The position numbers and the translations under genes were made by a program. Below, piece by piece: positions 6,301-37,744 of a DNA stretch of 64,000 nt. Within the stretch, counting starts at the first letter, position 1; every line of letters begins with the position of its first letter. The DNA is from Lachnoclostridium sp. (GTDB lineage Bacteria > Bacteroidota > Bacteroidia > Bacteroidales > Muribaculaceae): contig JAMPAP010000002.1 of NCBI GenBank assembly GCA_023667185.1, positions 150,978-214,977 on the forward strand. Direction: 5' to 3'. The notes beneath the pieces are model-generated. The model saw only the letters and a program-made list of their open reading frames with translations, was not told where the DNA came from and ran no database searches.

Positions 6301-6564
6301 TGAAAATCATACGTTTGGTTGTTAAATTGTGACGTATATCCAAAACTTCATTTCCCTGCTTTTGACGCCTCGAAAAAACGCCTGATTTTCGCGGTGTTAT
6401 GGATTTTATTTCTTATCTTTGCGTGTATTACTGTCTGAACGACAGACGGTTTGTCGCGGGCTTTTCAAAGCTCTTAAAGCTGCGGTTAAACGTCTTAAGA
6501 TTAGATGGTTATATGTGCAATATAGTAAATTAATTATCTTTTACAACTGATATATCTGAAGAAA

Positions 6565-9717: not shown

Positions 9718-9759
9718 TTTTCAAGTGCACAAATTTACTAATTCTGACTACTTCTTAAA

Positions 9760-15438: not shown

Positions 15439-15482
15439 TCACCACATATATTATATATAGTAACTGAAAATTTAAACCAAAT

Positions 15483-16361: not shown

Positions 16362-16412
16362 AAATAAAATATTATTGATTATAATTGAAAATACAAATTA
16401 AAAATATAAGCT

Positions 16413-22798: not shown

Positions 22799-22801
22799 AA
22801 G

Positions 22802-24010
22802 ATGATGAAACAGAAGATTAAGATAATCCTCATGGCGGTCAGTGCTCTGTGCATGGCTTCCGGGACTTCAGCCCAGAAGTCAGCAGCAAAGGCCATCGGC
22901 TACTACCGCTATGACCCTGCTAAGGTAAGCGAGCTTGCCGATCAAGCCGTCGACACGCTGAAAGCAGACGCGCTTCAGAAGGAAGCGTATAAAGTTGCTG
23001 TGACCGACGCGTTTAGCGCCCTGGTGAAGCGCTCAGACAAGAAAGTGAAGGAAAGCGAAATCCTTGATCAGCGCCAGCTTCTTGCCAACGCTGATACGAC
23101 AATTAAGAGCCTTAACGAGCGGCTCAAACTGGTTAAGGACTCGTTGGCTCTGCCGCTTGACAGTGTTTCACAGACTGAAGTCCCCACAGCCGAACAGAAT
23201 CTCATCAAAGAGATTGAAACCCTGAAAGTAGAATTAACTAACGCCAATGCTGATACCCTTGAATATAAGGAAGAGTTAGCGCGAGCCATGGCTCTCTATA
23301 ATGAGAAAGATAGCATCTTCAAATCCAAAGAGGATGAGGCTAATGCCATGAAATCTCAACTCAATGCAATGCTTAACGATTCGGTTGTAGCGAGTGTAAG
23401 TGCTGCAGAAGATGTATTGGCAAAACTTCACGAAGCCGCCGTAGCAAGTGAAGGGCCTCTGGCTAATGTTGATACAGATTCACTTGGCAATTCCTTGAAT
23501 GTGTATAGAGCCAACCGACTCAAATACGAAGGCGTATACCCTGCCGACCGACTTAAAGCAGCTGATGCTGACGCTGAAATCGTAAGTCAGGCGATTGATC
23601 TTGCCGGCCCGATAAAAAAAACCGTGGAAATCATGAAAGGCCGATATAACAAGGCTGATAACGACAAAGCTCATTCGGCAATTGCTGCATTAGTTGCCAA
23701 AGCGGGCGATCACAAGGCAGAGGTAAATGAGATTGCCGATGCTCTCGGAGAACGAGATCGTGCATACCGAAACGTTACCTACCTGTTGAATCAAATTGAC
23801 GAAATGGGCGAAAGTGGTTTCGAGTCCGATTTTGATATCGATTATACAATAACCAAAATAGTTGAGCTTTACTCTGATTCCGGCCGTTACAGTGAGTATT
23901 ACGTCAGGTTTAACGACGCCTTGAAAACCCTGAGTATGAAAATCAAAGGTAAAAAGCTCAGTGGAGATAAGATAAAGAAAATTACTAAAGAAATTAGAGA
24001 AACAATATGA
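22802..24010 (+). CDS. Secreted coiled-coil protein (402 aa)
   Basis: Signal peptide ILMAVSALCMASGTSAQ. A long heptad-like E/K/L/A-rich region follows. Confidence 0.65.
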   Translation: MMKQKIKIILMAVSALCMASGTSAQKSAAKAIGYYRYDPAKVSELADQAVDTLKADALQKEAYKVAVTDAFSALVKRSDKKVKESEILDQRQLLANADTTIKSLNERLKLVKDSLALPLDSVSQTEVPTAEQNLIKEIETLKVELTNANADTLEYKEELARAMALYNEKDSIFKSKEDEANAMKSQLNAMLNDSVVASVSAAEDVLAKLHEAAVASEGPLANVDTDSLGNSLNVYRANRLKYEGVYPADRLKAADADAEIVSQAIDLAGPIKKTVEIMKGRYNKADNDKAHSAIAALVAKAGDHKAEVNEIADALGERDRAYRNVTYLLNQIDEMGESGFESDFDIDYTITKIVELYSDSGRYSEYYVRFNDALKTLSMKIKGKKLSGDKIKKITKEIRETI

Positions 24011-25215
24011 TACGCAAGTTATTGATAATGCTGTTGGCCGCTATGCCCGCCGTTATGGCCTTGGCTGACGCTGCAGATGATGTGACTCTGTTCACCCTTA
24101 CCAACGATACACGGAACGTCGTTGTCAAGGATGCGACGCTGGAGGACTCTGTCGCCGGTCAGGTAGTCGACAAGGTGATAAAGAGATTCCTTGAAGAGCC
24201 ATGGGCTGTATCAGAGTATAACACAGCCTCACTGGATGAATACAAAACCTTGACAAAGACCGCCAACGATAGCATCAGGAAGCTGAAAGACCAACTAAAA
24301 AAAGAAGAAAAAGCTCTGAAGGCTCTGAATAATTCACTAGAAAAGGCTAAAGAGGAAGCCTCTAAAAAGGAAAAGAACCGCATTGATAGCCTGACAACGG
24401 TCAGAAACAAAGTCAAGGCTCAGCTTGATTCTATAAACAAGCAAAACAATAAACTTGAATCCTTGACAATAGTATATCGCAATAAGGTCGCTCATCTCGA
24501 CTCCCTAACCAATGCTCTAAATTCGCAGATTGACGAAATGGACACCGAACTCTCGCGCGGCTCTGCCATCAAGAAAGACTTTGATGACAAGAAAAATGAA
24601 GCCGCCAACGTTGTGAACTCCATCCGCAAAAATCTTGATACGATGCGCGCTACCGATCTGACGAAAGTTGACAAGAAGCCTATTGAGCAGTCAAAAAAGC
24701 TCCTTGCCGACAACAGCTTGCTTATACAAAACTATAACCCTGTCCTACTCCAGGAAGCCAAGAAGTATATCCGAGACATGGAGCAGATCCTCGAGGTCAA
24801 GAATGCTTGTGACGAATCACTCCTCCTCATGAGCCAGAAGTATGCCCCTGCAGCTGTAAATGCCCAAATCAGCAAACTTCAGGCAATACGCAGAGATGCC
24901 GATATGCTCTCATCCGCTCAGGAAAATTATGTGGTAGTTGTCCTTAATCTCCTTAAAGTGGAAGGTGAAACAGTCAATAAATTCAAAGAAACAGTCGAGG
25001 GGCTGAAAAAGCATATTGCGCTTGATGGGACCCCGGGTCAAGAGAATACGATAAAAAAAGAGCTTAATGGAGTGGTTATTAATCCTGAATACACTTATTA
25101 TATACAGATGCGCAAGAAAATCCTGGATGATTTCTTTGTGAATAAAACCAAAGGAGATCTCCTTGATTTCGAGCGATATGATGATTATTTAAATAAAACT
25201 CTAAACGATCTATAA
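24007..25215 (+). CDS. Secreted coiled-coil protein (402 aa), same length as the preceding gene
   Basis: Signal peptide LLIMLLAAMPAVMALADA. It is K/E/L/N-rich with coiled-coil character, and an ATGA start/stop overlap links it to the upstream gene. Confidence 0.65.
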   Translation: MIRKLLIMLLAAMPAVMALADAADDVTLFTLTNDTRNVVVKDATLEDSVAGQVVDKVIKRFLEEPWAVSEYNTASLDEYKTLTKTANDSIRKLKDQLKKEEKALKALNNSLEKAKEEASKKEKNRIDSLTTVRNKVKAQLDSINKQNNKLESLTIVYRNKVAHLDSLTNALNSQIDEMDTELSRGSAIKKDFDDKKNEAANVVNSIRKNLDTMRATDLTKVDKKPIEQSKKLLADNSLLIQNYNPVLLQEAKKYIRDMEQILEVKNACDESLLLMSQKYAPAAVNAQISKLQAIRRDADMLSSAQENYVVVVLNLLKVEGETVNKFKETVEGLKKHIALDGTPGQENTIKKELNGVVINPEYTYYIQMRKKILDDFFVNKTKGDLLDFERYDDYLNKTLNDL

Positions 25216-25216
25216 C

Positions 25217-26443
25217 ATGAGATTACTATCAGAAGAGTCGTTCAGCCGCATTGAGCCGCTGATTGCCGATGATTATAAACGCACCCGCAGCCGCCTGGCG
25301 CTGTTGTTGTCCCCGCAAGACTGCGAAGTGTTTGCCCAGGTGGACCTGCTGCCCAACCGCGGCAAGTGGGTAGCCGATGTCCCCGGCCAGCTGATGCCCT
25401 ATTCCGAGGCTTCGGCCGCCGAGCGCGAGCAGATCGCAGCCTATCTCGAGGATAAGAAGCGCGCCATAGCCGCTGCCATCGGCGACAAGGTCCCCTACGT
25501 CAACGACCTTTTCCGTATCCCTGATGAAAACCAGATCTTCTGGTTCAAGGACAGCACCGGCAATGTCCGCGTAGTGCTGTCGCAGTGGGGATTCCGCCGC
25601 ATCAATGCTCCCGGCGACGTCGACGTGATAGAATTTCTCATCTCCCAGCCCCGCACAATGTCAATATGCGAGGTTGTGGCCAAGGGCGTATACTCTGACG
25701 GACAGCCTTACGCCTGCCAGCCCATCACGCTCTCGATTTTCGGCAATACATCTGAGGTAAAAACCGCTACTGATGGTACTTACTTCATAGGCAAAGTGCC
25801 CATGAACAAGGAATTCTCAATCACGGCCGATGGACAGATATACGACTTCGTGACAAGTGCTGACCGCGAAAGCTACGACTTCATTGTCAATCGCTACACC
25901 GGGTGGAGTGTCCGCGTCGTTGGTCAGAAAGGTGAGTCTGTAGCCAACTATCCGGTGAAGATCAACGGCCGCGACTGCATGACCGATGCTGACGGCATCA
26001 TCGCTGCCGATAATGTCATGATGACCGGCGATGACCGCCTGCAGGTAGAAGCTGAATATGGCGAACCGATGGAATACACCCTCTCTCCAGTCAGAGAAAA
26101 CAACGACTTCGAATACCGCGTTACTCTCCCTGTAAAAGAGGAAGTGAAGCCCCCGCTGCCCCCTGTGCCCCCCGAACCGCCGGTTAAGAAACCCGTCAGA
26201 GTGCATCTGCTCGACCTTGACGGCTCGCCCCTTGACTTCGTTGATGTATTCATTGACCAGCCCAACGGCACCACTGTCACCGCCACAACCGATGCCGACG
26301 GCTGGGCCACCTTCCCACGCGACACCTTTGTTGACAAGAAGAAGTCAAAGCTCCGCTTCAAGCTCACCAAGGAGTATCAGGAGCGTCGCCGCCAGATGAA
26401 AGAACAGCAAAAACAGCAACAAACTTCACAGAATCATGGCTAA
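25217..26443 (+). CDS. Cytoplasmic protein: N-domain shared with the S8 protease, CarboxypepD_reg-like beta-sandwich repeats, Pro-rich stretch, basic tail
   Basis: SAAEREQIAAYLEDKKRAIAAAI...VRVVLSQWGF resembles SGAEREKYERILDKTMRSIARSV...RVVITEWGM in 12841..15438. Repeats of the type TDADG.. occur. Pro-rich stretch: PPLPPVPPEPP. Confidence 0.65.
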   Translation: MRLLSEESFSRIEPLIADDYKRTRSRLALLLSPQDCEVFAQVDLLPNRGKWVADVPGQLMPYSEASAAEREQIAAYLEDKKRAIAAAIGDKVPYVNDLFRIPDENQIFWFKDSTGNVRVVLSQWGFRRINAPGDVDVIEFLISQPRTMSICEVVAKGVYSDGQPYACQPITLSIFGNTSEVKTATDGTYFIGKVPMNKEFSITADGQIYDFVTSADRESYDFIVNRYTGWSVRVVGQKGESVANYPVKINGRDCMTDADGIIAADNVMMTGDDRLQVEAEYGEPMEYTLSPVRENNDFEYRVTLPVKEEVKPPLPPVPPEPPVKKPVRVHLLDLDGSPLDFVDVFIDQPNGTTVTATTDADGWATFPRDTFVDKKKSKLRFKLTKEYQERRRQMKEQQKQQQTSQNHG

Positions 26444-28325
26444 ATCTCAGGATATCAACTATCAGAAAAAATTCAAGTTTGACCCCCGGCAGGACGAATA
26501 CGAATTCCAGCTCAAGAAGAAACGTAACTGGTGGTGGCTGCTGTTGCTGCTGTTACCCCTTCTGCTGCTGATCCGCTGCGAGCGCGACATGACCATAACC
26601 GTGGTCGACGATGATACCGACGAGCCTATCGAAGGAGCCCAGCTCAACTTAAGGTACACTTCCCATTATCTGCTCAAAGACTGGAAATTCCTCCTCAACG
26701 AGCCGGTGGCGCGCGAGGCTATTACTGATGTCGACGGAGAAGCACGTTTCGAGAAGCTCCCCTGCAGCGTCTACTCCTACATATTCTATTGCCTGAGCCG
26801 CGCTGCTGTCACGGCCTCCGACCCTTGCCATGAACCGGCCTCGATAATGCCGCTGGTTCACTACACATGGAATGCCGAAATCCGCCTCAAAAAGCTCCTC
26901 ACTGACGTCACCGTCACGGTGGTCGATGATGAGACCTCTGATCCAATCCCGGGGGCTGTGGTCACAGTAACCACCGGCGAAGTCACTGATTCCGTAACCA
27001 CAGATGCCGCCGGGCGTGTCAAGCTCGAAAAAGTGCCTCACTGTGGTATTATCGATGTGCTGAAAGGCTCGGCCTTCGGCTACGCTGATACCTTGCGGCG
27101 CAACCTGCCCGTGGCGCTGCTCGAAGACCCTGACAGCGCTTATCTGCGACTCCGTCCCGTCAAGGAGCGCTTCACATTCTTCGTCAAAGATGTGGAGACT
27201 CGCGAGCCGATCCCCGGTGCAACAGCTGTGGTGACCCTCGACGACCCCCGATCCGGCTATCGCGGCACTCATGAATACAAGACCAACGTCGATGGCCGCG
27301 GCATGGGATTCTACGACGAAGGGTTTATCCTCTCGCGCCTCAGCATAAAGGCCTCAAAAGTGCATTACAACGATTCCACCCTGAAGGGTGACTACACTAT
27401 CGGTGAATTTATAAAACTGCCTGACTCGCTTCGCACCGTATGGCTGCGCCCGATGCCATTTAACACTGAATTCCAGTGTATCGACTCCCTCTCGCGCAAG
27501 CCCATACCGGGAGTGGAAAATGTGATCACTGTCACTGACCCTGCCGGAAATACCGAGACCTATACCGAGATATCCAACCGCAATGGCAAATTCCCCGTCC
27601 ATGCCAAGGAAGGCTCCAAGATACATATCGACTCGCGTCTCCCCGGCGAGTACAAGGACAAGGCTACTGACATCCCCTCCTACGACGGAAAAGAGGAGAT
27701 CATCGAAATGATGCCTGACGTCACTCCGCTTGACGTAGACATGGTGATGGTGATTGACAACACCGGCTCAATGTCAGGAACCATAGGTATGGTAAAGCGC
27801 AATGCCTCGAATTTCTATTCTGACCTCAACGAGGAATGTGTGAAACATAAACTGTATATCAACAAGTTCCGCCTGAAGGTGATCTCGTACGGCGACCTGT
27901 CAGAAAAGCCGTTCAATGTATCACCGCTATATGAATTACCTGACCAGACTGCTGCTTACAAAGCATTCGTAAGCTCAATTATAGCCGCCGGAGGTGGCGA
28001 TGAGCCTGAGGATGGATTGCAGGCCGTGCGCGACGCCATGTCGACATCCTGGGTAAGCGGGCCGCAGCTCAAGCGCCATGTGATCGTCGTGTACACTGAT
28101 GCTCCGACCCATAGTATGTCATCCGGCGACTTCGACGCCATTAAATCCAAATGGATGTCAATGGATCCCGATTCGCGGCGCATGATCCTCTTTGCCCCGG
28201 CTAAAGATTCATGGAACACGCTGGCCACCTGGCCTCAGGTAAGTCACGAGACCGGTTCGCTCTCGTCAGTGCTCGCCGGAACCGGTTACGCCAACGTCCT
28301 CGAAAATATCTGTAAATCACTCTAA
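26436..28325 (+). CDS. N-terminally anchored periplasmic protein: four CarboxypepD_reg-like repeats plus a C-terminal von Willebrand factor A (vWA) domain
   Basis: TM segment KKKRNWWWLLLLLLPLLLLIRC. Repeats are ITVVDDDTDEPIEGAQ, VTVVDDETSDPIPGAV, FFVKDVETREPIPGAT and FQCIDSLSRKPIPGVE. The MIDAS-like motif is VMVIDNTGSMSG (about 27750), followed later by GGGDEPEDG and VVYTDAP. Confidence 0.8.
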   Translation: MAKSQDINYQKKFKFDPRQDEYEFQLKKKRNWWWLLLLLLPLLLLIRCERDMTITVVDDDTDEPIEGAQLNLRYTSHYLLKDWKFLLNEPVAREAITDVDGEARFEKLPCSVYSYIFYCLSRAAVTASDPCHEPASIMPLVHYTWNAEIRLKKLLTDVTVTVVDDETSDPIPGAVVTVTTGEVTDSVTTDAAGRVKLEKVPHCGIIDVLKGSAFGYADTLRRNLPVALLEDPDSAYLRLRPVKERFTFFVKDVETREPIPGATAVVTLDDPRSGYRGTHEYKTNVDGRGMGFYDEGFILSRLSIKASKVHYNDSTLKGDYTIGEFIKLPDSLRTVWLRPMPFNTEFQCIDSLSRKPIPGVENVITVTDPAGNTETYTEISNRNGKFPVHAKEGSKIHIDSRLPGEYKDKATDIPSYDGKEEIIEMMPDVTPLDVDMVMVIDNTGSMSGTIGMVKRNASNFYSDLNEECVKHKLYINKFRLKVISYGDLSEKPFNVSPLYELPDQTAAYKAFVSSIIAAGGGDEPEDGLQAVRDAMSTSWVSGPQLKRHVIVVYTDAPTHSMSSGDFDAIKSKWMSMDPDSRRMILFAPAKDSWNTLATWPQVSHETGSLSSVLAGTGYANVLENICKSL

Positions 28326-28331
28326 ATCGAT

Positions 28332-29456
28332 ATGCCTAAAACCAATATGTCACCCGTCAAGGAGCAGCTTCTCCGCCACATGAAGGAAGCCCCGCAATAC
28401 TACCATCCGGCACTGTTGCGCGACATCCTTGACGGCCGACTTGGGGATGCTGACGACTACGCCCTCATGCCCGGCCCGATGAAGGAGTTCATCGAGTCAG
28501 GGCAGAGGCTTACGTGGGAGGAGATCCTTGGGGCCGGAGTGCTTCCCCGGCCGCTTCCCCGCGAGGTGGTGACCGCTGATGAGGATATGCGCCTACCCGT
28601 CTACTCCGTTAAGCAGTATGAGGGCGGCATCGTAGCTCCGCATCGCACTGACGTGTTTATCCTCGGCGTGGCCGGTACAGGAAAATCCTCTCTTGCCTGT
28701 AGCCTTATCCGCCAGCTCGTGGATGTGTGTGAGTATGAGTATCAGCCTATGAAGTCCTCGCCCGATGATGCCAAGACTGCTGATTATTATAATGCTGTCA
28801 TGGACATAACTTTGCGGTTCAACAAGCCCGTGGCTCCTTCGCTCAACGATAACCTACTTTTCACCCAGCTTCGCGACACCCATTCTCGCCGCCGCCTTAC
28901 CATTATTGACGGTGACAGCAATGATATGTCAGATCTGGCACGGATCAACACCCCTGACGGAGTGATATTCAAGAAATACAATATCTACCGTATCATGGGC
29001 AACCGCAACTCCAAGATCCTGCTACTGCTCTTCAACTATCGTCAGATCAAGACCTCCGGCCATCGCACCATGTTCAACCAGTCAATGCTCATCGAGCGCT
29101 TCCTCAATGCCATGACATCTGACGGATCACCCGATAATCCCGAAAAGGATAGCTCGTTCAGCCGATTGAAAGGACTGGTATTTGTGTTTACAAAGTGCGA
29201 CAATCAGGATCCTGACGCGCTGAATGTCATCAACCGGTTTCTTGAAGAGCATCTCAAGACTGTGATGATGCGGCTCGACATCATCAACCGCCGTTTCGGC
29301 ATCAACAAGGAGAATGGCTACCGCCCGTATATCCTCCCCGTTACCCTCGGGCAGTTTACCATCGGAAACACGTTCATCTACAACCCGGAAACATCCATAA
29401 ACCTTGCCAAACTTATCACCTCGATTACACCTACGCAGTGGCCCTGGCAATGTTGA
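28332..29456 (+). CDS. TRAFAC-type GTPase-like protein, paralog of 16413..17954, with a degenerate G3
   Basis: G1 FILGVAGTGKSSLA (about 28666) and G4 FVFTKCDN. The G3 position reads LTIIDGDSND, with no DxxG glycine. The C-terminus GYRPYILPVTLGQFTIGNTFIYNPETS matches DYRPYFLTFSLGNFYVGNTVVFNPDDS in the paralog. Confidence 0.65.
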   Translation: MPKTNMSPVKEQLLRHMKEAPQYYHPALLRDILDGRLGDADDYALMPGPMKEFIESGQRLTWEEILGAGVLPRPLPREVVTADEDMRLPVYSVKQYEGGIVAPHRTDVFILGVAGTGKSSLACSLIRQLVDVCEYEYQPMKSSPDDAKTADYYNAVMDITLRFNKPVAPSLNDNLLFTQLRDTHSRRRLTIIDGDSNDMSDLARINTPDGVIFKKYNIYRIMGNRNSKILLLLFNYRQIKTSGHRTMFNQSMLIERFLNAMTSDGSPDNPEKDSSFSRLKGLVFVFTKCDNQDPDALNVINRFLEEHLKTVMMRLDIINRRFGINKENGYRPYILPVTLGQFTIGNTFIYNPETSINLAKLITSITPTQWPWQC

Positions 29457-29494: not shown

Positions 29495-30949
29495 ATGTTA
29501 GATATAATCGCTAAAAACCCGTTCCGCATCCTCGGTGTCTACTCTGACTCCGGCCTGCGTGACATCGTGGCCAATCGCAACCGCATCAATGCCTTTGCGA
29601 AAGTGGGGAAGCCCTGTACGTTTCCTACTGATCTTGCCTCACTCGCCGGACCGGTTGACCGCTCGCCCGAATCAGTGCAGGCTGCTGACTCGGCTCTTAC
29701 CATCGATGCTGACAAACTGAAATATGCTACCTTCTGGCTTATGAAGGGGGAGCCGGCTGACGCTGACGCCCTCCGTATGGCCTCGGAAGGAAACATAGCC
29801 GGTGCGCTCGCCTCGCTCGAGAGCCGCAGCTCCATGGCCTCGCTTCAGAACCTTGCAGTCATCAGCCTGATGCGCAACGATATCCGCAAGGCTTCAGTGG
29901 CTTTCGCAAATATGACTGACCGCTATGCCGCAAACTTCTACTCGGCTATCGGACTCAATGTCGGCGGCACGGAAACTCTCGTGGATACATACGTGAAGAC
30001 ACTCCTGGAGAATGACAGCACGATCGATGCGGCCGTGTTTACCGGTAATGATTATCCCGCCTCGTGGAATGCAACTGTAAAAGACGTGGCCGCTGTGCCC
30101 GTCATCTCCCAGCTTGAGGCGTTGATAGCCGAGGCCCGCAAGTCGAAGGACGGCAGCCCCGTAGAGCGTCTCAAAGCCGGTATCAACCTCTCCAAGAAGT
30201 CAAAACCGCTGCTGATGAAGCTGCGCAATATGCTGACCACCAAAGATCTCAAACTCGTCAATATATCTGACAAGGTAGGCAACGAGGTGCTTCAGTGCGG
30301 TATCGACTTCTATAACGATTCTGACGACATTTCTACTGCCAAGGATGCCCTCGCTCTTGCCAAGGATGCCCGCATGATAGTGCTCGGCTCCATGGCCCGC
30401 CAGCGTTGCGACGAGAATATCAAGACCCTCGAAAACAATGCCGCTCTTATCCCGTCAGCCGCTATTCAGGCCGACGTTAATGCTATCAGTGTAGCTCTCA
30501 ACGACTTCACCTCCCACAACCAGTCGTTTGACTCGCTCATCAGCCTCCTTGACCTTGTAGAGCCTCACCTGAAGAAGATGAAGGACACTGTAGGTGAAAA
30601 TGATCCTATCTATATCAACTGGTCAACAAACGTAGTGAATGTAGCTCTTAACCTGATCATCGACAAGGTTAATGCTGCACAAAATGTAGCAGGCAATGGC
30701 TCTAAACAGCTTCAGGACTATGTCACATATGTCGCAATGGCTCACGGTTTCATGAATCGTCTGTCGAAATACGCGATGGATCAGGCGTGCCGCAATCGAT
30801 TCAATACCAATAACAATACACTCAATGATCTTTATGCCCAAACCAAAAATGTCAATACCGGCGGCAGCAGCGATTCCGGCTTCAGCAGCTGCTTTATACA
30901 GATCCTGATTTATTTGGGTATCATGGCATTAGTGGGAATGTGTAGTTAA
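29495..30949 (+). CDS. Tail-anchored helical protein with a J-domain-like N-terminus that lacks the HPD motif
   Basis: NPFRILGVYSDSGLRDIVANRNRINAF resembles J-domain helix I/II (DYYEILGV...). No HPD tripeptide follows. C-terminal TM: FIQILIYLGIMALVGM. The family call is weak. Confidence 0.45.
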   Translation: MLDIIAKNPFRILGVYSDSGLRDIVANRNRINAFAKVGKPCTFPTDLASLAGPVDRSPESVQAADSALTIDADKLKYATFWLMKGEPADADALRMASEGNIAGALASLESRSSMASLQNLAVISLMRNDIRKASVAFANMTDRYAANFYSAIGLNVGGTETLVDTYVKTLLENDSTIDAAVFTGNDYPASWNATVKDVAAVPVISQLEALIAEARKSKDGSPVERLKAGINLSKKSKPLLMKLRNMLTTKDLKLVNISDKVGNEVLQCGIDFYNDSDDISTAKDALALAKDARMIVLGSMARQRCDENIKTLENNAALIPSAAIQADVNAISVALNDFTSHNQSFDSLISLLDLVEPHLKKMKDTVGENDPIYINWSTNVVNVALNLIIDKVNAAQNVAGNGSKQLQDYVTYVAMAHGFMNRLSKYAMDQACRNRFNTNNNTLNDLYAQTKNVNTGGSSDSGFSSCFIQILIYLGIMALVGMCS

Positions 30950-30969
30950 TAAAAAATTTAATACCAGAT

Positions 30970-31899
30970 ATGAAAAAATATTTTACAATGCTTGCTCTTG
31001 CAGCGGCAATGACAATGTCGGCACAGATGCCGGGTATCCCTTCAGAAAATCTCGCTGATTCGCTTAAGGCGGTTAATAAGGAGCTCGTTACCATTAACGA
31101 TGCTGTAAAAAAGAATGCCGAGGATATAAAGGCAGTCAATGAGTGCATTGACGCCACTGAAAAGGCTTTCGTTGCCAAAACTGACTCAATGACAGCCGAG
31201 GCCTCCGCGCTCGCGGCTCGCGTTGACGATATCAACTCTACTCTCAATGCCGCCATCGAGAAGGTGAACGAGACCCTCGGCACCGAGATCCGTACCACCA
31301 AGACTGAGGTGACAACGCGCACCGGCTCGCTGCTGACATACGGTATTATTGCGGCCATCGTGCTACTCCTTCTTGTTGTGGCTGCATATATGATACTTCG
31401 CAAACGTATCGGCGACGGCAGCGTGGATCTTGACACGGTCAAGGAGGCTAACAAGCAACTTCAGGAGCAGTCAGTCAGCCTTGACAATAAGCTTACTGAA
31501 GTGCTTCAGCAACAACTCGCCATGGCTGATACGCTGAAAAAGGCCACGGCAAACAGCTCTTCCGAGCCTGATCACTCTCTGGAGCTATCGATTGCCAACG
31601 AGCTCGCCCGCATAGAGCAGAACCTCGCTTTCATGGATCCCAAAACCAAGGGTGTGTCACAGCTTAAAAACCGTGCAGCGGCTATCAGCGAAGCTCTCAA
31701 AAAGAAGGGCTACGAGATTGTGCCGATGCTCGGCCAGGATTACAAGGAGGGCATGAACGTGGAGGCCACGATGGAGGAGGATGACACTCTCGAGCCCGGT
31801 AAGCAGATTATTCGCCGCGTTAGCCGTCCGGCCGTGCTCTACAAAGGATCTATGATACAGCCCGCTCAGGTAGTGGTGGCTTTCAACCCCGAAGACTAA
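30970..31899 (+). CDS. Membrane-spanning protein with a cytoplasmic GrpE-like C-terminal domain
   Basis: It has a signal peptide (MLALAAAMTMSAQ), a periplasmic coiled coil, and the TM segment LLTYGIIAAIVLLLLVVAAYMIL followed by RKR. The C-terminus KKGYEIVPMLGQDYKEGMNVEATMEEDDTLEPGKQIIRRVSRPAVLYKGSMIQPAQVVVA follows the GrpE beta-domain pattern (G.E.I...G...dp..h.A.......PG.V..V...GY...G..iRpA.V.V). Confidence 0.6.
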   Translation: MKKYFTMLALAAAMTMSAQMPGIPSENLADSLKAVNKELVTINDAVKKNAEDIKAVNECIDATEKAFVAKTDSMTAEASALAARVDDINSTLNAAIEKVNETLGTEIRTTKTEVTTRTGSLLTYGIIAAIVLLLLVVAAYMILRKRIGDGSVDLDTVKEANKQLQEQSVSLDNKLTEVLQQQLAMADTLKKATANSSSEPDHSLELSIANELARIEQNLAFMDPKTKGVSQLKNRAAAISEALKKKGYEIVPMLGQDYKEGMNVEATMEEDDTLEPGKQIIRRVSRPAVLYKGSMIQPAQVVVAFNPED

Positions 31900-31920: not shown

Positions 31921-34422
31921 ATGGCATCACTTAAAATAATATACGGTATCGACCTCGGTACCACCAACTCGGCAATCACCCGATTCGAAAATGGTAAGGC
32001 CGTAGTAAAGAAAAATTCGCTCCAGAGTGACACCACACCATCTGTTGTGGCATATCGCGCCCAGGGTAAGGCCCCTTCGGTAGGCTCACGTGCAAAAACT
32101 CAGCTTGAGAAGGATCACGTGATGGCCTTCCGCAAGCCGGGCTATAAGTCAAACGTATTCCATGAGTTCAAGCGCGTGATGGGCACTGACCATAAGTTTT
32201 TCTCTTCAGCGCTTAATGCCGAGCTGACTCCTGAGGATCTTTCGGCCGAAGTGCTAAAAGAGCTGCGTAAGAATATCCTTGATGATGAGGTCTCATCGGC
32301 CGTAATCACCGTCCCTGCGATGTTTAATAACACTCAGAAGGATGCAACCAAGCGAGCTGCAAAACTCGCCGGATTTGACCATGTAGAGCTTATTCAGGAA
32401 CCGGTGGCCGCATCTGTGGCTTATGGTTTGTCCTCAAAGATGAAGAATGCTTACTGGGTGGTGTTTGACTTCGGTGGCGGTACATTTGACGCTGCTCTGA
32501 TGCGTATCACTGACGGTATCATGCAGGCTATAGACACTGCCGGTAACAACAAGCTCGGCGGCAAGGATATCGACAACGCTATAATCGAGCAGATTATGAT
32601 CCCATATTTCCGCTCCAACTATACAATTGAAAACATCCTGACCAACAATCGCAAGGCCTTTGCCGAGGTGTGGAAGGCAAAGGCTGAGGAGGCGAAGATT
32701 AACCTTTCGTTCAACTCATCGTATGAGCTCGAGACTGACCTCGGCGAGGATTACGGTACTGATGATCTCGGCGATGAGCTTGCCCTCTCGCTCACCATCA
32801 CTCAGGATGATCTGGAGCGTGTGGCTGCGCCCATCTATCAGAAAGCCATCGATATAACCAAGGAACTGCTTGCCCGCAACGGTATCAACGGCAAGGATCT
32901 CGGCGCTCTTATCCTCGTGGGCGGTCCTACACATTCGCCCATTGTGCGTCGTATGCTCCGCGAGCAGGTGACTCCGAATGTCGACACTTCTATTGACCCG
33001 ATGACCTGTGTGGCTGCCGGGGCTGCCATCTATGGCTCTACAATAGATGTCCCTGAGGAGATTGCTGACACCAAGCGTGACCGCTCCAAGGTGCAGCTCG
33101 CCGTGACTTATCAGAGTACCTCAGTCGAGACCGAGGAGTGGGTGTCAGTATCGCTGCTCCGTGACAAGTGTGACAACTACACCGAGCCTACGGTGAGAGT
33201 GGAATTTGCCCGCACTGACGGCCTGTTTACCTCGCCCGCCTCAGAAGTGGATGCAGCCGGCGACGTTGTATCGCTGATGCTCAAGCCGGATGCTACAAAT
33301 ACGTTTGATATCCGCTGCTACGACAGCCGCGGCACACGCCTCGAGTGTGAACCATCGCAGATCTCCATCATTCAGGGTGTGGCCGGATTAGGCGATGCTG
33401 TCATCCCTATGGCTCTCGGTATCGGTGCTACCAATAAGGATAATGTCGAAGTATTCATCCCCATTCAGGGTCTCGAGAAGAGCCGCAAGCTCCCCGCTTC
33501 GGGAAGTACTCGCTCTAACGGACTTCGCACACAGAAGGATATTCGCCCAGGTGTGGAGTCTGACACCGTCAGAATGTCTCTTTATCAGACCGAGGATGTG
33601 GGCGAAAACGTCAGAGTGCTCTATTGCCAGCGCATCTACGATGTACTGGTCACCGGCGAGGATGTACCCGTACTCGTGCCTGCCGAGAGTGTGATAAATA
33701 TCAACCTCCATGCCGAGCGCTCGGGCACAATCGATAAGTTTGAGATCGAGATTCCGAGCATCAACTTCACTCTCGACCTTACCGAGCGCATGAGCAAGAG
33801 CACCACATCAGCTCTCTCCGAAAGCTTCCTTGTGCATGAGATATATGATGCCAAGACCCGCGCCCGCCGCCTTGATAATGCCGCCTTGATCAACCGCATT
33901 GACCTTCTTGAGCAGCGCCTGAAGAATGCTGCCGGCGACCGCGATGCCCTCGATGGTATCTTTGCCGAGCTCCAGTCAATCGGTCGCGAGATCGATCATC
34001 AGATGTCGCTCGGCGAATGGGATCGCGAGGCTGCCCGACTTAAGTCAATGTTTGCCGAACTCTCAAACGATAACGTCAAGTATGGCAACGCTGATACCAC
34101 CGCTCTAATCGAGCAGATCAAGAAGGAGATGGACAAGGTGCTCGAAAGCCGTAACGTCCAGCTTGCCAAGGATCTTTACAGCCAGATGTGGAATCTCGAC
34201 TTCCGCATCGCTGAGGTGGAATTCTATATCGCATGGATACAGCAATGGAACAGCGAGTTTGCCCGCAAGAACTGGACTAATCCCTCGCGTGCCCGCCAGC
34301 TCGTTGACAATGGTCTGTCCATCATCCGCCAGGGCTCGCCTACGGCCGATGCTCTCCGCCCCATTGCCTTTGAGCTCAACGATATGCTACCCGAACACCA
34401 GAAAACCGATACTCTTCACTGA
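31921..34422 (+). CDS. Non-canonical Hsp70 (DnaK-family) ATPase, 833 aa
   Basis: IYGIDLGTTNSAI, VITVPAMFNNTQKDATKRAAKLAGF, VFDFGGGTFDAAL and LVGGPTHSPIVRRML. SBD-beta-like: IPMALGIGATN...VFIPI. An extra segment of about 115 aa lies between the NBD and SBD, and the helical C-terminus is long. Confidence 0.9.
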   Translation: MASLKIIYGIDLGTTNSAITRFENGKAVVKKNSLQSDTTPSVVAYRAQGKAPSVGSRAKTQLEKDHVMAFRKPGYKSNVFHEFKRVMGTDHKFFSSALNAELTPEDLSAEVLKELRKNILDDEVSSAVITVPAMFNNTQKDATKRAAKLAGFDHVELIQEPVAASVAYGLSSKMKNAYWVVFDFGGGTFDAALMRITDGIMQAIDTAGNNKLGGKDIDNAIIEQIMIPYFRSNYTIENILTNNRKAFAEVWKAKAEEAKINLSFNSSYELETDLGEDYGTDDLGDELALSLTITQDDLERVAAPIYQKAIDITKELLARNGINGKDLGALILVGGPTHSPIVRRMLREQVTPNVDTSIDPMTCVAAGAAIYGSTIDVPEEIADTKRDRSKVQLAVTYQSTSVETEEWVSVSLLRDKCDNYTEPTVRVEFARTDGLFTSPASEVDAAGDVVSLMLKPDATNTFDIRCYDSRGTRLECEPSQISIIQGVAGLGDAVIPMALGIGATNKDNVEVFIPIQGLEKSRKLPASGSTRSNGLRTQKDIRPGVESDTVRMSLYQTEDVGENVRVLYCQRIYDVLVTGEDVPVLVPAESVININLHAERSGTIDKFEIEIPSINFTLDLTERMSKSTTSALSESFLVHEIYDAKTRARRLDNAALINRIDLLEQRLKNAAGDRDALDGIFAELQSIGREIDHQMSLGEWDREAARLKSMFAELSNDNVKYGNADTTALIEQIKKEMDKVLESRNVQLAKDLYSQMWNLDFRIAEVEFYIAWIQQWNSEFARKNWTNPSRARQLVDNGLSIIRQGSPTADALRPIAFELNDMLPEHQKTDTLH

Positions 34423-36179
34423 TGATTTACAAAGCTAAAGATACAATACTTGACCGCTACACTGTCCTTTTCCCGATAAAGGAAGGAGCCTACGCCGAGT
34501 CGTATCGCGTGAAAGATGCTGCCGGCAAGCGGTATTTCTTCAAGCTGATTGACCGGTCCAGGCTTCAGCCCGAGCAGATCGATGACTATGGGCGTGTGCG
34601 CGAAATAGAGATCGTAAAGGATTTGGCTCACCCATGCCTCCCGGCTATGATCGAGTCGGGCGAGGTGACTATCGGCGGCAAGGAGTACGAATACCTTGTC
34701 AACAAATATGTGCCCTCCGAGACCCTTGCTGACCGCCTTCAGCGCGCGCAGACCCTCAAAATGTATGATATCAAGGCCATAGCTCGCGGAGTGCTCTCGG
34801 CTCTGACAGCGCTGCATGAGAATGACAATCCGGTGATCCACAATGAGGTCACGGCTCTGAATGTGCTGATGGATCTGTCGGTCGACGATCCGTCGGCTGT
34901 ATGCCTTATCGACTTTGGCTATGCCCGCCATACTGACGAGGCTCATGGCCAGTCGATCGAGGGGCTCAACTGGTTTTACCTCGCTCCGGAACGGTTTGAC
35001 GGCGCTTCAACGGTGCAGAGCGACCTCTATTCAGTAGGAGCTCTGCTATATCAGCTGACCTTCGGGCTGCTCCCCTGGTTCTGCGACCTCTCGACCATAG
35101 CTCCCGAGAAGCGTAAGCAGTATATCCTGCGCCAGAAGCACACCGCATTGCTGATGCCCGTAGTGGATAAGTTTGAGCTCGACGATCGTTTCCTCAACAT
35201 CCTCCGCAAAGCTCTTGCTGCTGATGTCGACGAGCGTTTTCAGTCGGCCCGGGAGTTTCTTGACGCCATCGAGGGAAAAGGCGAGGTGATAGCGCCGTCG
35301 CAGAATCCTGCTACGGCTGATGATCGCCGCGATGCTTTCTCAGCTTCGCGTCAGCGCTCCGGCAACGGGTTTGAGGATGTGGCAGGTATGACAGAGCTTA
35401 AGGAAATGCTCCGCAAGCGGGTGCTCAACATCCTGCGCGATACCGAGAAGGCAAAGCGTTACAAGCTTCAGATACCCAACGGTATACTCTTCTACGGCCC
35501 TCCCGGATGCGGCAAGTCGTTTCTTGCTGAGAAGTTTGCCGAGGAAGCCGGCTACAATTTCAAGCTCGTGAAGGCATCTGACCTGGCGTCTATCTATGTT
35601 CACGGCTCGCAGGAAAAGATAGGCCAGCTCTTTGACGAGGCACGCAAGAATGCGCCTACGATCCTCTGCTTCGACGAGTTTGACGCTCTGGTGCCGGCTC
35701 GCGGTACGCAGGGCGCCGAGCACCAGTCGGGCGAGGTCAACGAGTTTCTTACCCAGCTCAACAACTGCGGCGAGACCGGCGTCTTCGTCATCGCGTCGAC
35801 CAATCGTCCCGACATGATCGACCAGGCCGTGCTGCGTCGCGGCCGTATTGACCAGGTGATTTTCATCCCGGTGCCTGATGCCGAGAGTCGTGCCGCGATG
35901 TTTGAGCTCCATCTCAAGGGTCGCCCCTTCGACACCTCGATCGACTATTCAGCACTCGCTGCCTTGACTGAGAATTACGTGGCAAGTGACATAGCCTACG
36001 TGGTCAACGAGGCCGCAGCCCGCGCAGCGTTTGCTGACGAGAAGATCACTTCCGAGCATCTCGAAGAGGTAATCTCCGAGTGCCGCCCTTCGCTCAACGA
36101 GGGCGCGCTGCGCAACTACGACAAGCTACGCGAAAAAATGGAAGGCATCGTGGAGTCACGGCGCCGCATAGGTTTTTAA
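34422..36179 (+). CDS. Fusion of a Ser/Thr-kinase-like domain (atypical catalytic loop) and a classical-clade AAA+ ATPase
   Basis: Kinase-like motifs: YFFKLI (beta-3 Lys), IHNEVTALNVLMD in place of HRDLKPxN (34839..), DFGYA (34911..) and YLAPERF. AAA+ motifs: Walker A GPPGCGKS (about 35496), Walker B ILCFDEFD, sensor-1 IASTN and the Arg-finger region DQAVLRRGRID. Confidence 0.85.
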   Translation: MIYKAKDTILDRYTVLFPIKEGAYAESYRVKDAAGKRYFFKLIDRSRLQPEQIDDYGRVREIEIVKDLAHPCLPAMIESGEVTIGGKEYEYLVNKYVPSETLADRLQRAQTLKMYDIKAIARGVLSALTALHENDNPVIHNEVTALNVLMDLSVDDPSAVCLIDFGYARHTDEAHGQSIEGLNWFYLAPERFDGASTVQSDLYSVGALLYQLTFGLLPWFCDLSTIAPEKRKQYILRQKHTALLMPVVDKFELDDRFLNILRKALAADVDERFQSAREFLDAIEGKGEVIAPSQNPATADDRRDAFSASRQRSGNGFEDVAGMTELKEMLRKRVLNILRDTEKAKRYKLQIPNGILFYGPPGCGKSFLAEKFAEEAGYNFKLVKASDLASIYVHGSQEKIGQLFDEARKNAPTILCFDEFDALVPARGTQGAEHQSGEVNEFLTQLNNCGETGVFVIASTNRPDMIDQAVLRRGRIDQVIFIPVPDAESRAAMFELHLKGRPFDTSIDYSALAALTENYVASDIAYVVNEAAARAAFADEKITSEHLEEVISECRPSLNEGALRNYDKLREKMEGIVESRRRIGF

Positions 36180-36200: not shown

Positions 36201-36692
36201 ATGATAAAAGATAATTTGAATCTCGCTACAGCCTTCGCATTTATGGCATGCGACGGCGATATCTCGCCCGATGAGGTGAAGTTGATAAAGCAGATGAATG
36301 CTGACGGCATCATCCCGTGTGACGATGTCGACGATAAGCTCGAGCAGCTACTCGGGCAGCTCAACGCCCGCGGTCACGGCTTTATGAAAGACTATTTCCA
36401 GGCCGTCACTGACGCTGACCTTGACGCCGACGCGGCTCTCGCGCTACTCAAGATTGCCGTCGCCACCATCTATGCCGACGAAATCGTGGAATACTCCGAG
36501 GTGAAGTTTTTCCGAGCCGTGCGCTCGCATATCCTCTCAATGACCGATGAGCAGATCCTCGAGGCTATCCCCGAGGTTGAGGACTTTTGGCTGGAGTCTG
36601 ACGTCAAGTCGGCCGCTCCGGGCTACCTCGACCAGCAGTATATGGAAGCTGTCGAGCTACCGCAGTTTGACATCGCATCATTGAAGAAGTAA
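36201..36692 (+). CDS. TerB-like (tellurite-resistance TerB / DjlA N-domain type) protein
   Basis: Two copies of the TerB-type motif: FMACDGDISPDEVKLIKQM and IYADEIVEYSEVKFFRAV. All-helical, 163 aa. Confidence 0.65.
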   Translation: MIKDNLNLATAFAFMACDGDISPDEVKLIKQMNADGIIPCDDVDDKLEQLLGQLNARGHGFMKDYFQAVTDADLDADAALALLKIAVATIYADEIVEYSEVKFFRAVRSHILSMTDEQILEAIPEVEDFWLESDVKSAAPGYLDQQYMEAVELPQFDIASLKK

Positions 36693-37744
36693 TGGATAAG
36701 GTATTTATAAGCTACCGCCGCGATACGGGGCAGGATATCGCCCGCGGCCTCAACGACCGTCTCACCCAGCGCGGCATCAAGACCTTCTTTGACCGTGAGA
36801 CGCTCCATAACGGCAAGTTTAACCAGCAACTGCTCGGCGCCATCCGCGAGTGCCGCGACTTCATACTTGTGTTCTCCAAGGGCGCCCTTGACCGCTGCGT
36901 CAACCCTGACGACTGGGTGCGCACCGAGATCGAGTGTGCTCTGAAGCTGCATAAAAACATTGTGATAGTCTACACCATCCAGCCGCTCGAATTTCCGGCC
37001 AATCTCCCCGCGTCGCTCAACGAGCTGAAGTTTTACCAGGGCGTGTATCTCAACCATGAGTATTACAACGAGAGCATTGACCGCATCATCAACCACCTCG
37101 AGACCGGGCGTCAGCTCCATCGCAGCCGCGTCTTGACATGGGGATGCGTGGCTCTGGCCATTATCGTGACTGCCGCGTGGATGTACTTCGGCCATGAAAA
37201 GAACGCTGACTCTCAGCCCGCTGCCGTAGAGGATAGCGTGGCAGTGGTTGAGGAAGAGCAGATTGTAGTGGAGCAGCCTTCAAAGAAGAAGTCTACCCCC
37301 GTGCAGCAAGCCCCCTCAAAGCCCGTCGAAAAGTCTACCCCGGCCGTGGAGGAAAAGTCTCAGCCCGCAGCTACCCAGCCTGTAACCACCCAGCCTGTCG
37401 CCACTCAACCCGTAGCAACTCAGCCGCAGACACCCCGCAAGAGCGACGTGGAGCAGCTTGCCGAACGAGCTGCCTCGGGTGATGCCGCCGCAGCCTGTCA
37501 GATGGGTCTGCGGTTCCTTAACGGCGATGGCGTGTCAAAAAATTTCAAGACCGCCTTTGCATATTTCAACCAGTCGGCCTCGGCCGGTAACATCGATGGT
37601 ATGTACTGGCTCGGATACTGCTATCGCATGGGGCGCGGCACTTCCAAGGATTTAAATAAAGCCAAGCAATTGTGGAAACGCGCTGCCTCGGCGGGAAATG
37701 CCCGTGCCGCCCACGACCTCGAAGAAATCGAATCATTAATGTAA
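36692..37744 (+). CDS. TIR domain - TM - Pro/Thr/Gln-rich linker - Sel1 (SLR) repeat protein
   Basis: TIR: VFISYRRDTGQDIARGLNDRLTQRGIKTFFDRETLHNGKF...FILVFSKGAL...DWVRTEIECAL, with the conserved Glu present. TM: VLTWGCVALAIIVTAAWMYFG. Sel1: AACQMGLRFLNGDGVSKNFKTAFAYFNQSASAGNIDGMYWLGYCYRMGRGTSKDLNKAKQLWKRAASAGN. Confidence 0.85.
   Translation: MDKVFISYRRDTGQDIARGLNDRLTQRGIKTFFDRETLHNGKFNQQLLGAIRECRDFILVFSKGALDRCVNPDDWVRTEIECALKLHKNIVIVYTIQPLEFPANLPASLNELKFYQGVYLNHEYYNESIDRIINHLETGRQLHRSRVLTWGCVALAIIVTAAWMYFGHEKNADSQPAAVEDSVAVVEEEQIVVEQPSKKKSTPVQQAPSKPVEKSTPAVEEKSQPAATQPVTTQPVATQPVATQPQTPRKSDVEQLAERAASGDAAAACQMGLRFLNGDGVSKNFKTAFAYFNQSASAGNIDGMYWLGYCYRMGRGTSKDLNKAKQLWKRAASAGNARAAHDLEEIESLM
37370..37429 (+). 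repeat. Four tandem 15-nt coding units (ATQPV TTQPV ATQPV ATQPQ) in the TIR-Sel1 linker
   Basis: The four units gctacccagcctgta, accacccagcctgtc, gccactcaacccgta and gcaactcagccgcag were read directly. Confidence 0.85.

Follow-up and report, generated by a model that had tools for sequence, protein, structure and literature searches.

Structure of the gene and of the encoded protein

The window analysed here is a stretch of 64,000 nucleotides from contig JAMPAP010000002.1 (assembly GCA_023667185.1, positions 150,978 to 214,977 of the forward strand). At positions 30970-31899 of the window, on the plus strand, an open reading frame (ORF) beginning with ATG encodes a protein of 309 aa, which is referred to as GrpE-TM. 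The protein combines a predicted exported coiled coil and a single transmembrane (TM) helix with a cytoplasmic domain that resembles the exchange factor GrpE in its fold, and its gene stands directly upstream of a gene for Hsp70.

The N-terminus of GrpE-TM (aa 1-19, MKKYFTMLALAAAMTMSAQ; 30970-31026) was read from the sequence as signal-peptide-like: a basic n-region precedes a hydrophobic core, and the small residues SAQ form its end. It is followed by an exported, i.e. periplasmic, coiled-coil segment with heptad periodicity (aa 20-120; 31027-31329), which is the most variable part of the protein, and by the TM helix (aa 121-143, LLTYGIIAAIVLLLLVVAAYMIL; 31330-31398), for which the 19-residue Kyte-Doolittle mean was determined to be 3.0. 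A basic stop-transfer motif with a short hinge, RKRIGDGS (aa 144-151; 31399-31422), corresponds to the family consensus LRKRIxxGS. In the cytoplasmic part, the long alpha-helix (aa 152-193; 31423-31548) was modelled by AlphaFold with a predicted local distance difference test score (pLDDT) mostly above 90 and was matched with the long N-terminal helix of GrpE by hhalign and Foldseek. The following loop and two helices (aa 194-245; 31549-31704) correspond to the helices that make up the GrpE dimer's four-helix bundle, according to the AlphaFold model and the Foldseek alignments of about 160 columns. The C-terminal beta domain (aa 246-309 and the stop codon; 31705-31899) has six strands in the AlphaFold model and corresponds, by hhalign and NCBIfam as well, to the beta domain with which GrpE contacts the nucleotide-binding domain (NBD) of Hsp70.

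An antisense ORF of 177 aa, rich in Ser and Ala, overlaps the GrpE-TM gene on the minus strand (30921-31454) and was taken as a by-product of the composition of the coding strand.

Sequence similarity to GrpE

The sequence-only reading of this DNA had compared the end of the protein with a GrpE sequence of E. coli and had found the two to agree nearly position by position. The E. coli string used there was exact and represents residues 137-193 of the grpE product of NC_000913; the string KKGYEIVPMLGQ...QVVVA of the query was located at residues 245-304 of the 309-aa translation. The GrpE-likeness of the C-terminal part was upheld, but the closeness had been overstated, as the local alignment of the ORF with the beta domain of E. 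coli GrpE contained 13 identities in 56 columns (~23%) and one 2-residue gap. The Smith-Waterman score was 40, compared with 22.2 ± 4.3 for 2000 shuffles (z = 4.2, p = 0.003). With E. coli GrpE as the tblastn query against the window and the loci of relatives, no match was obtained at 30970-31899 at E<10.

The Pfam profile of GrpE, PF01025, aligned with residues 166-304 of the query at E = 0.04, and the NCBIfam profile PRK14151 with residues 215-307 at E = 0.005 and 16.5 bits, the cut-off of the latter being 231 bits. A significant GrpE profile match, the lack of which would refute the earlier reading on its own terms, was not obtained with the query itself, since the Pfam score was 14.0 bits and the cut-off is 25.8 bits; the identification is based on the fold and on the family as a whole. 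Judged by the single sequence, the identity with GrpE is only suggestive. PF01025 matched 11 of 46 relatives at E<0.1, with a best value of 1.7e-5, and one relative of the GrpE-TM protein carries a precomputed PF01025 annotation. In the hhalign comparison of the family with E. coli GrpE alone, residues 130-194 (the beta domain) were aligned over 65 columns with P = 4e-4. When the family was compared with an alignment of three GrpE sequences (E. coli, Geobacillus, human), 133 colinear columns including the helices were obtained with P = 1.1e-4 and a probability of 56%.

An assignment of the gene as the housekeeping grpE was rejected, since the TM architecture, the very low degree of similarity and an accessory, variable context all speak against it.

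Fold of the cytoplasmic domain

The AlphaFold2 model of residues 150-309, calculated with the family alignment as input, had a mean pLDDT of 89.5. It consisted of helices at positions 3-44 (42 residues), 54-72 and 80-96 of the domain, followed by six beta strands. The elements follow one another as in GrpE: first the long helix, then the two helices of the bundle and finally the beta domain. In the Foldseek search against the PDB, ranks 1-13 were all GrpE chains (9a81, 4ani, 1dkg, 9bls, 9blt, 8gb3, 3a6m) and represented five sources, namely E. coli, Geobacillus, Thermus, Mycobacterium and human mitochondria. The E-values of the 13 matches were between 6.7e-6 and 2.8e-2 over 151-165 aligned columns, and the Foldseek probability was 1.0 throughout, except at ranks 9, 10 and 12 (0.99) and at rank 13 (0.63). 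A sharp drop followed the GrpE chains, with E = 0.29 at rank 14. The global root-mean-square deviations (RMSD) of the matches were large, 18-30 Å, because the angle of the long helix differs in the monomer model.

In the family alignment, L171 and D172 of the long helix were invariant, and L175, L179 and Q182 were nearly invariant. The region of the bundle helices contained the invariant residues D201, H202, E211, I215, N218, D223, G228, L232 and I239. GrpE-TM would presumably form a homodimer via the long helices, in which leucines 171, 175 and 179 and Q182 are conserved, and via the four-helix bundle.

The fold provided the decisive evidence for the assignment. According to the model, the whole cytoplasmic half (residues ~150-305), beyond the last 70 residues, represents a complete and highly divergent GrpE core. 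The GrpE-like C-terminus that had been proposed from the sequence was therefore borne out by the fold, while its extent turned out to be larger than the ~70 aa originally assigned to it.

It is extremely improbable that the C-terminal domain is unrelated to GrpE and resembles it through a coincident shape of a helix and a small beta domain. The single-sequence profile scores under threshold, the lack of a BLAST match and the global RMSD of 18-30 Å would be in accordance with a chance resemblance. However, the top 13 structural matches were all GrpE from five organisms, with probabilities of 0.63-1.0 and a sharp drop thereafter, the order of the elements was identical, and the independent sequence methods agreed on the family and on the register. 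In addition, an Hsp70 gene adjoins the gene in 11 of the 11 loci compared.

Protein family and membrane topology

The search of a collection of 5.8 billion proteins resulted in 82 clusters of relatives with lengths of 215-349 residues and almost no informative names, and exact look-ups of family members added none. One architecture was found throughout the alignment: a hydrophobic N-terminus of the MKK type, a poorly conserved helical segment, a hydrophobic helix, the LRKRIxxGS motif and the conserved C-terminal 160 residues. In the latter, L171, D172, E211, I215, N218, D223, G228, L232, I239, Y248, D271, P287 and Q297 were invariant, and a family-specific set consisting of DHS, RIEQNL, MD, KG and MIQ was strongly conserved. 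With a profile of the C-terminal part, 1195 proteins were retrieved at E≤0.001 from 1.84 billion representatives at 50% identity, 963 of them at E≤1e-10 and 548 at E≤1e-30. Among the best 150 of the 1195, the domain was always C-terminal and stood behind ~50-330 residues, typically 130-260. As judged from these sequences, the GrpE-TM family is large and the architecture is its defining trait. A scan with restrictive patterns resulted in only 3 loci in 185,579 species-representative genomes.

The topology was derived from hydrophobicity and from the counts of Lys and Arg over the family alignment, the signal peptide being predicted. A signal-like hydrophobic N-terminus together with exactly one internal TM helix was detected in 206 of the 223 family members, and in nearly all relatives some 165 residues separate the internal helix from the C-terminus. 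In 218 members, the mean number of Lys and Arg in the 15 residues flanking the TM helix was 4.4 after the helix compared with 2.2 before it; the count was higher after the helix in 91% of the members and lower in 2%. At least one basic residue within residues 2-7 was also present in 91% of them. Because of the positive-inside rule and the basic residues after the TM helix, the C-terminal domain was assigned to the cytoplasm. The partner Hsp70 lacks a signal peptide and starts directly with the ATPase motif, so the GrpE domain must be cytoplasmic in order to meet its partner. The signal-like N-terminus, the TM helix and the RKR motif were all conserved across the family.

The exported segment had a hydrophobic periodicity near 3.5 residues, with z = 4.3 in the query, a family median of 3.9 and values above 2 in 83% of the members. 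Its proline content was 0.24%, and its length varied from 69 to 268 aa with a median of 96. The identity to the query among relatives was 13% in the exported segment versus 53% in the cytoplasmic domain. The full-length family profile matched only coiled-coil proteins among the PDB chains, and these matches were driven by the exported segment. The arrangement predicted earlier from the query, in which one TM helix joins an exported coiled coil at the N-terminus to a GrpE domain in the cytoplasm, was thus found to be a feature of the whole family (206/223 for the helices, 91% of 218 for the charges and a median z of 3.9 for the periodicity).

The sequence-only reading had also suggested that the Hsp70 cycle may be gated by a periplasmic signal. 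In a more detailed form of this idea, the periplasmic coiled coil would sense what happens at the envelope, for example the adsorption of a phage or its injection, damage to the cell wall or the binding of a periplasmic partner (e.g. the vWA protein described below), and a conformational change passing through the paired TM helices into the paired long helices would switch the exchange activity on or off. We consider such gating rather unlikely. It would be in line with the regulatory role of the canonical GrpE coiled coil as a thermosensor (PMC10825016), as the long helix of GrpE-TM begins only ~8 residues after the TM helix. The high variability of the exported segment (13% versus 53% identity) is as expected of a sensor in an arms race, and among the other products of the operon are exported coiled-coil proteins, a lipoprotein and a vWA protein with a TM anchor, which is predicted to lie on the periplasmic side. 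However, the conserved hinge RKRIxxGS contains a helix-breaking Gly, which argues against a rigid continuous signalling helix; the low conservation and the length range of 69-268 aa would fit a spacer or an oligomerisation stalk equally well; and the lack of any ligand-binding domain speaks for plain tethering. The Gly hinge (RKRIGDGS) and the variable exported segment fit simple tethering at least as well as gating. It is unlikely that GrpE-TM is a complete transmembrane signal transducer, in which the periplasmic coiled coil would detect, for example, a phage attack and would alter the exchange via the paired TM and long helices, whereupon the Hsp70 cycle would arm the kinase-AAA+ protein and the TIR-type effectors. 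If true, this would represent a new principle of bacterial transmembrane signalling and a new class of Hsp70-based immunity.

Partner Hsp70

The gene of the partner Hsp70 (833 aa; 31921-34422, plus strand) starts 21 bases after the GrpE-TM gene. The protein consists of a DnaK-like NBD, matched by the Pfam HSP70 profile at E = 1e-68 over residues 8-375, and of an unassigned C-terminal part of ~450 aa. The NBD was 32% identical to that of DnaK (BLASTP, 1e-47). The equivalents of the ATP-site positions D8, T11, E171, D194, T199 and D201 of DnaK were kept in 6 of the 6 Hsp70 orthologues compared. In the same six, R167, N170 and T173 of DnaK, which we take to be contacts of the J-domain HPD tripeptide, were replaced with E, Q and V or I, respectively. 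The partner Hsp70 also had K in place of E28 and R in place of D326. A resemblance to the substrate-binding domain of DnaK was seen only at the first strand, VQLAVTYQSTSVET compared with LLLDVTPLSLGIET.

Conserved neighbourhood

The window was compared with ten loci of relatives (L001/L002, L003/L004, L005, L006, L007, L010, L011, L012 and L013), giving 11 loci in total. In all 11, a gene for an Hsp70 of 828-864 aa was located directly downstream of the GrpE-TM gene, even when the identity of the GrpE domain was as low as ~33%. The same order of five core genes was determined in 10 of the 11 loci: a helical protein of ~500 aa, GrpE-TM, Hsp70, a fusion of a kinase with an AAA+ ATPase (kinase-AAA+), and a TerB-like protein of ~165 aa. 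The kinase-AAA+ gene was likewise present in 10 of the 11. The gene of the helical protein, 484 aa long in the window, was conserved in the loci of five relatives by tblastn, and a gene for ~500-570 aa was located at the same place in the others. The TerB-like gene was kept in L001, L003, L005 and L006 according to tblastn, and L010-L012 contained a gene for 154-174 aa at the same place. In L013, no kinase-AAA+ gene adjoined; this locus had two full-length Hsp70 genes (9519-12113 and 14955-17437) and a GrpE-TM of 478 aa with a longer exported part. L012 contained an additional NBD-only Hsp70 (5393-6529) between GrpE-TM and the full-length Hsp70.

The flanking genes varied. The vWA and GTPase-like genes of the window recurred only in its closest relative, L005 (CAZKNK010000003.1), the Hsp70 and kinase-AAA+ of which were 82-86% identical to those of the window, and no counterpart of the TIR gene was found in the related loci. 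Elsewhere the flanks included an integrase (L010), the type I restriction-modification (RM) protein HsdM together with M78/DUF4411 (L011), a relaxase (L003) and an ADP-ribosylglycohydrolase (L001), and DUF6804 was recurrent in the flanks of the relatives' loci. The hosts appear to be Bacteroidales, judging by the Bacteroides and Prevotellaceae labels of the metagenome-assembled genomes (MAGs) and by neighbouring genes with BACON and GH95 domains; this taxonomic survey is thin, as it consists of MAG labels and gene content. The MAG of L005 is labelled "uncultured Staphylococcus sp.", a label that is probably wrong.

The constant core and the variable, effector-like flanks in mobile and defence-island contexts form the pattern of a conflict system. 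Being flanked by variable genes, the five-gene core is most likely a membrane-associated conflict or defence module.

Other genes of the probable operon and its surroundings

In the window, the genes from the 484-aa protein to the TIR protein form a tightly packed run on the plus strand with spacings of 20, 21, -1, 21 and -1 bases, which fits a single operon.

The 484-aa protein (29495-30949) was modelled with a pLDDT of 88 as a TPR-like protein consisting entirely of helices, with a C-terminal TM tail anchor. Foldseek with the full-length model resulted in weak helical-repeat matches only. The N-terminus of the protein, NPFRILGVYS..., resembles the start of a J domain (helix I/II), and N8, P9, R11, G14 and V15 were invariant. 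The HPD tripeptide was absent from the family, the consensus of which was ...KAFLKVGKxVSFPLDL... with V37, D46 and R56 invariant; VGK/FPxD stands where HPD would be. No Pfam match, including the J-domain profile PF00226, was obtained in 30 members, and the hhalign comparison of the family with the J domain of E. coli DnaJ covered 20 columns with a probability of 6%. The best match of the family among the PDB sequences was 2cug (E = 0.23), presumably a J domain. The identity as a J domain is thus unsupported by the HPD motif, Pfam, hhalign and Foldseek and was kept as a weak lead only. The 484-aa protein could be a J-like regulator of the Pam16 type, or it could be unrelated to J domains.

The kinase-AAA+ fusion downstream of Hsp70 has a length of 585 aa (34422-36179) and was assigned by Pfam as Pkinase (E = 1.8e-26) and as AAA of the CDC48/FtsH type (E = 6.4e-34). 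PADLOC matched the kinase half with mad6 and PD-T4-6 and the ATPase half with IetA. The catalytic loop of the kinase was H-N-E-V-T-x-x-N and not H-R-D-x-K-x-x-N in 5 of 6 orthologues, the one in L010 having H-N-G, and the DFG motif was degenerate in two orthologues. According to these sequences, the protein may be an atypical kinase or a pseudokinase. The TerB-like core protein of 163 aa (36201-36692) was under the Pfam threshold for TerB, PF05099. In 4 of 5 orthologues, this profile matched at E = 1.2e-4 to 0.016 and 15.9-22.7 bits over profile positions 8-113/118, the cut-off being 24.4 bits. The gene after the core (36692-37744) encodes a TIR-TM-Sel1 protein. Its TIR domain was assigned by PF13676 at E = 1.7e-12, its TM helix covers residues 147-165, and it also contains a low-complexity Pro/Thr/Gln linker and Sel1 repeats. 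This protein is a candidate membrane-anchored TIR effector.

Upstream of the core, on the plus strand, lie the genes of the vWA protein (26436-28325) and of a GTPase-like P-loop protein of 374 aa (28332-29456). The former contains an N-terminal TM helix, WWWLLLLLLPLLLL, CarboxypepD_reg repeats and a vWA domain, and is predicted to face the periplasm; the latter has the motifs GVAGTGKSS (GxxxxGKS) and TKCD. A lipoprotein with the lipobox LILTAC, followed by two proteins of 402 aa with signal peptides and long coiled coils, is encoded at 21992-25215 (plus strand). In the periplasm, the lipoprotein and the 402-aa proteins may act as partners of the GrpE-TM coiled coil. Still further upstream, on the same strand as the Hsp70 module, three genes were located: one for a homologue of SrfB (6565-9717; PF07520, E = 4e-160), one for an SrfC-like "putative virulence factor" (9760-12813; PF10139, E = 2e-99) and one for a subtilase of the S8 type that has a TM helix (12841-15438). 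The SrfB, SrfC-like and S8 genes were absent from the other loci examined. Housekeeping genes such as dxs are situated from position 41000 on the opposite strand.

A function outside defence was also considered, namely a membrane-bound Hsp70 motor for envelope biogenesis, secretion or the extraction of membrane proteins, similar to the import motor of mitochondria. Two or three components that resemble co-chaperones have membrane anchors, and the operon of the window encodes many exported or membrane proteins and an S8 peptidase, with SrfB/SrfC-like proteins upstream; the PAM motor of mitochondria provides a precedent for the action of Hsp70 and GrpE at a membrane (PMC12987570). However, the conserved core contains no translocon or secretion-system gene. 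The flanks vary by locus and include TIR, RM, integrase and toxin-antitoxin-like genes, and the patchy distribution of the loci (3 in 185,579 species-representative genomes with restrictive patterns) fits accessory or mobile genes. A motor of this kind is therefore decidedly unlikely.

Discussion

The results of the present study suggest that GrpE-TM is probably a membrane-tethered exchange factor, or at least a docking site for the NBD, which serves the adjacent Hsp70 in a conflict module. It is predicted to be a bitopic inner-membrane protein with the N-terminal coiled coil of ~100 residues outside the cytoplasm and the C-terminal 160 residues inside, and its exchange function would be reserved for the non-canonical Hsp70, the gene of which begins 21 bases downstream. 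In the canonical GrpE dimer, the long helices run in parallel from their N-termini. Since the long helices are parallel, the anchoring of both N-termini in the membrane should be compatible with a normal GrpE dimer. The GrpE-like long helix starts ~8 residues behind the TM helix; the beta domains would reach into the cytoplasm by about the length of one helix, and a docked Hsp70 would have the C-terminal end, with which it binds clients, turned back to the membrane. In such an arrangement, the ATPase cycle of Hsp70 would be confined to the inner face of the membrane, where its neighbours would be the helical protein with the tail anchor and the vWA and TIR proteins with their TM helices, and the cycle could serve as a nucleoside triphosphate-driven switch of the module. 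Canonical GrpE, which opens the NBD of Hsp70, is a dimer built from one long coiled coil, one four-helix bundle and two beta domains; at 48 °C the coiled coil melts, and it thereby serves as a thermosensor (PMC10825016).

Several observations weigh against this proposal. The sequence match of the query to GrpE falls under the curated thresholds of both Pfam and NCBIfam, and the profile of the cytoplasmic-domain family retrieved none of the GrpE chains from the PDB sequences, although a profile-to-sequence search is apparently not sensitive enough to connect GrpE-TM with these chains. The three canonical GrpEs share three invariant stretches, one of which lies in the long helix (E-N-x-R-x-R) and two in the beta domain (D-P-x-x-H-x-A and G-Y-x-L-x-x-R-x-x-R-x-A). 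In the hhalign alignment, the GrpE-TM family had a variable loop, Y-x-x-G-x-N and Y-x-G-x-M-I-Q-x-A opposite them, respectively. E-N-x-R-x-R and D-P-x-x-H-x-A were thus not kept, and G-Y-x-L-x-x-R-x-x-R-x-A was the only signature stretch partly kept. Because the canonical motifs are lost, the exchange activity is not to be assumed from homology. The partner Hsp70 differs from DnaK by the changes R167E, N170Q, T173V and E28K at positions which we assume to be co-chaperone contacts, and in its C-terminal ~450 residues no substrate-binding domain of DnaK was found by hhalign with a single DnaK sequence, a comparison of low power. This non-canonical Hsp70 may lack a classical chaperone cycle. Finally, beyond the kinase-AAA and TIR proteins, no component of the module matched a known defence model in PADLOC.

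The loss of the signature residues and the family's own conserved set (DHS, RIEQNL, MD, KG, MIQ) would also be expected of an exchange-dead anchor or inhibitor, and so would the very low similarity to GrpE in sequence. In that case, the GrpE fold would bind the NBD with no exchange, and would dock Hsp70 or hold it nucleotide-free until, for example, the kinase-AAA+ protein frees it. This appears improbable, as binding in the manner of GrpE opens the NBD (PMC10825016), so that release is likely to be promoted, and as the ATP-site residues of the partner are kept, implying a working cycle which needs exchange. We favour a tethered exchange factor, or at least an NBD docking site.

Descriptions of GrpE present it as a soluble factor, located in the cytoplasm of bacteria and in the matrix of mitochondria. 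In comparison with canonical GrpE (1DKG; 4ANI; human GrpEL1, 9BLS; PF01025), GrpE-TM has a similar order of elements and a weak colinear profile similarity, and in both cases the gene adjoins that of Hsp70. In contrast, the place of the disordered N-terminal tail of canonical GrpE is taken in GrpE-TM by a TM helix preceded by a signal peptide and an exported coiled coil, and the partner is a specialised Hsp70 instead of the housekeeping DnaK.

DjlA of E. coli is similar to GrpE-TM as an Hsp70 co-chaperone at the cytoplasmic face of the inner membrane with one TM helix. The membrane localisation of DjlA is needed to direct DnaK to membrane signalling proteins, and DjlA contains a TerB-like domain (PMC11709261), whereas in the GrpE-TM module the TerB-like domain is encoded by a separate core gene. 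DjlA also differs in being a J-domain protein, which stimulates the ATPase, and no exchange factor, in having only a short periplasmic stub, and in working with the housekeeping DnaK and soluble GrpE.

Predicted conflict systems which carry their own Hsp70 and GrpE, in some cases with DnaJ, have been described (Kaur, Burroughs, Iyer, Aravind 2020, PMC7159879, section 29). The GAP1-N2 DO-GTPase systems of that work resemble the present module in sometimes having an NBD-only Hsp70, as was found in L012, and membrane-associated components, and vWA and kinase genes occur in related themes. Their defining components are DO-GTPases and GAP1, and they occur mainly in actinobacteria and firmicutes, whereas the GrpE-TM module belongs to Bacteroidales and has a GTPase-like gene in only 2 of the 11 loci (the window and L005). 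The identity with these systems was rejected because the GTPase-like gene is not in the conserved core; GAP1 itself was not searched. An assignment as a CoCoNuT type III-A extension was likewise rejected, since the defining genes are outside the conserved core. The text of PMC7159879 describes no TM-anchored GrpE, and one of its supplements contains no GrpE entry. In a 2025 review of GrpE-like factors (PMC12987570), the words "transmembrane", "membrane-anchored" and "signal peptide" do not occur. Literature searches resulted in no membrane-integrated GrpE and no five-gene module of Hsp70, kinase-AAA and TerB; their coverage was incomplete and an earlier description is possible. What is new in GrpE-TM is the architecture of a GrpE-fold protein and its genomic partnership, the GrpE fold itself being known.

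A further parallel is the mitochondrial presequence-translocase motor, which consists of mtHsp70, the membrane-anchored J and J-like proteins Pam18 and Pam16 (the latter without HPD), Tim44 and the exchange factor Mge1/GrpEL1 (PMC12987570). In both the motor and the proposed GrpE-TM module, an Hsp70 cycle is localised at a membrane together with an exchange factor of the GrpE type. The mitochondrial GrpE homologue is soluble, in contrast to GrpE-TM, and the bacterial module encodes no translocon. The review of GrpE-like factors names the retention of GrpE at the inner membrane of mitochondria among the open questions (PMC12987570), whereas in the large unannotated family described here the retention is solved by integrating GrpE in the membrane. 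If the proposed function holds, GrpE-TM would be a natural example of an exchange factor which spatially confines the Hsp70 cycle, and the module would be a candidate for a new Hsp70-based conflict system in gut Bacteroidales. It would also offer a tractable way to find out whether GrpE can have its regulatory long helices driven from the other side of a membrane.

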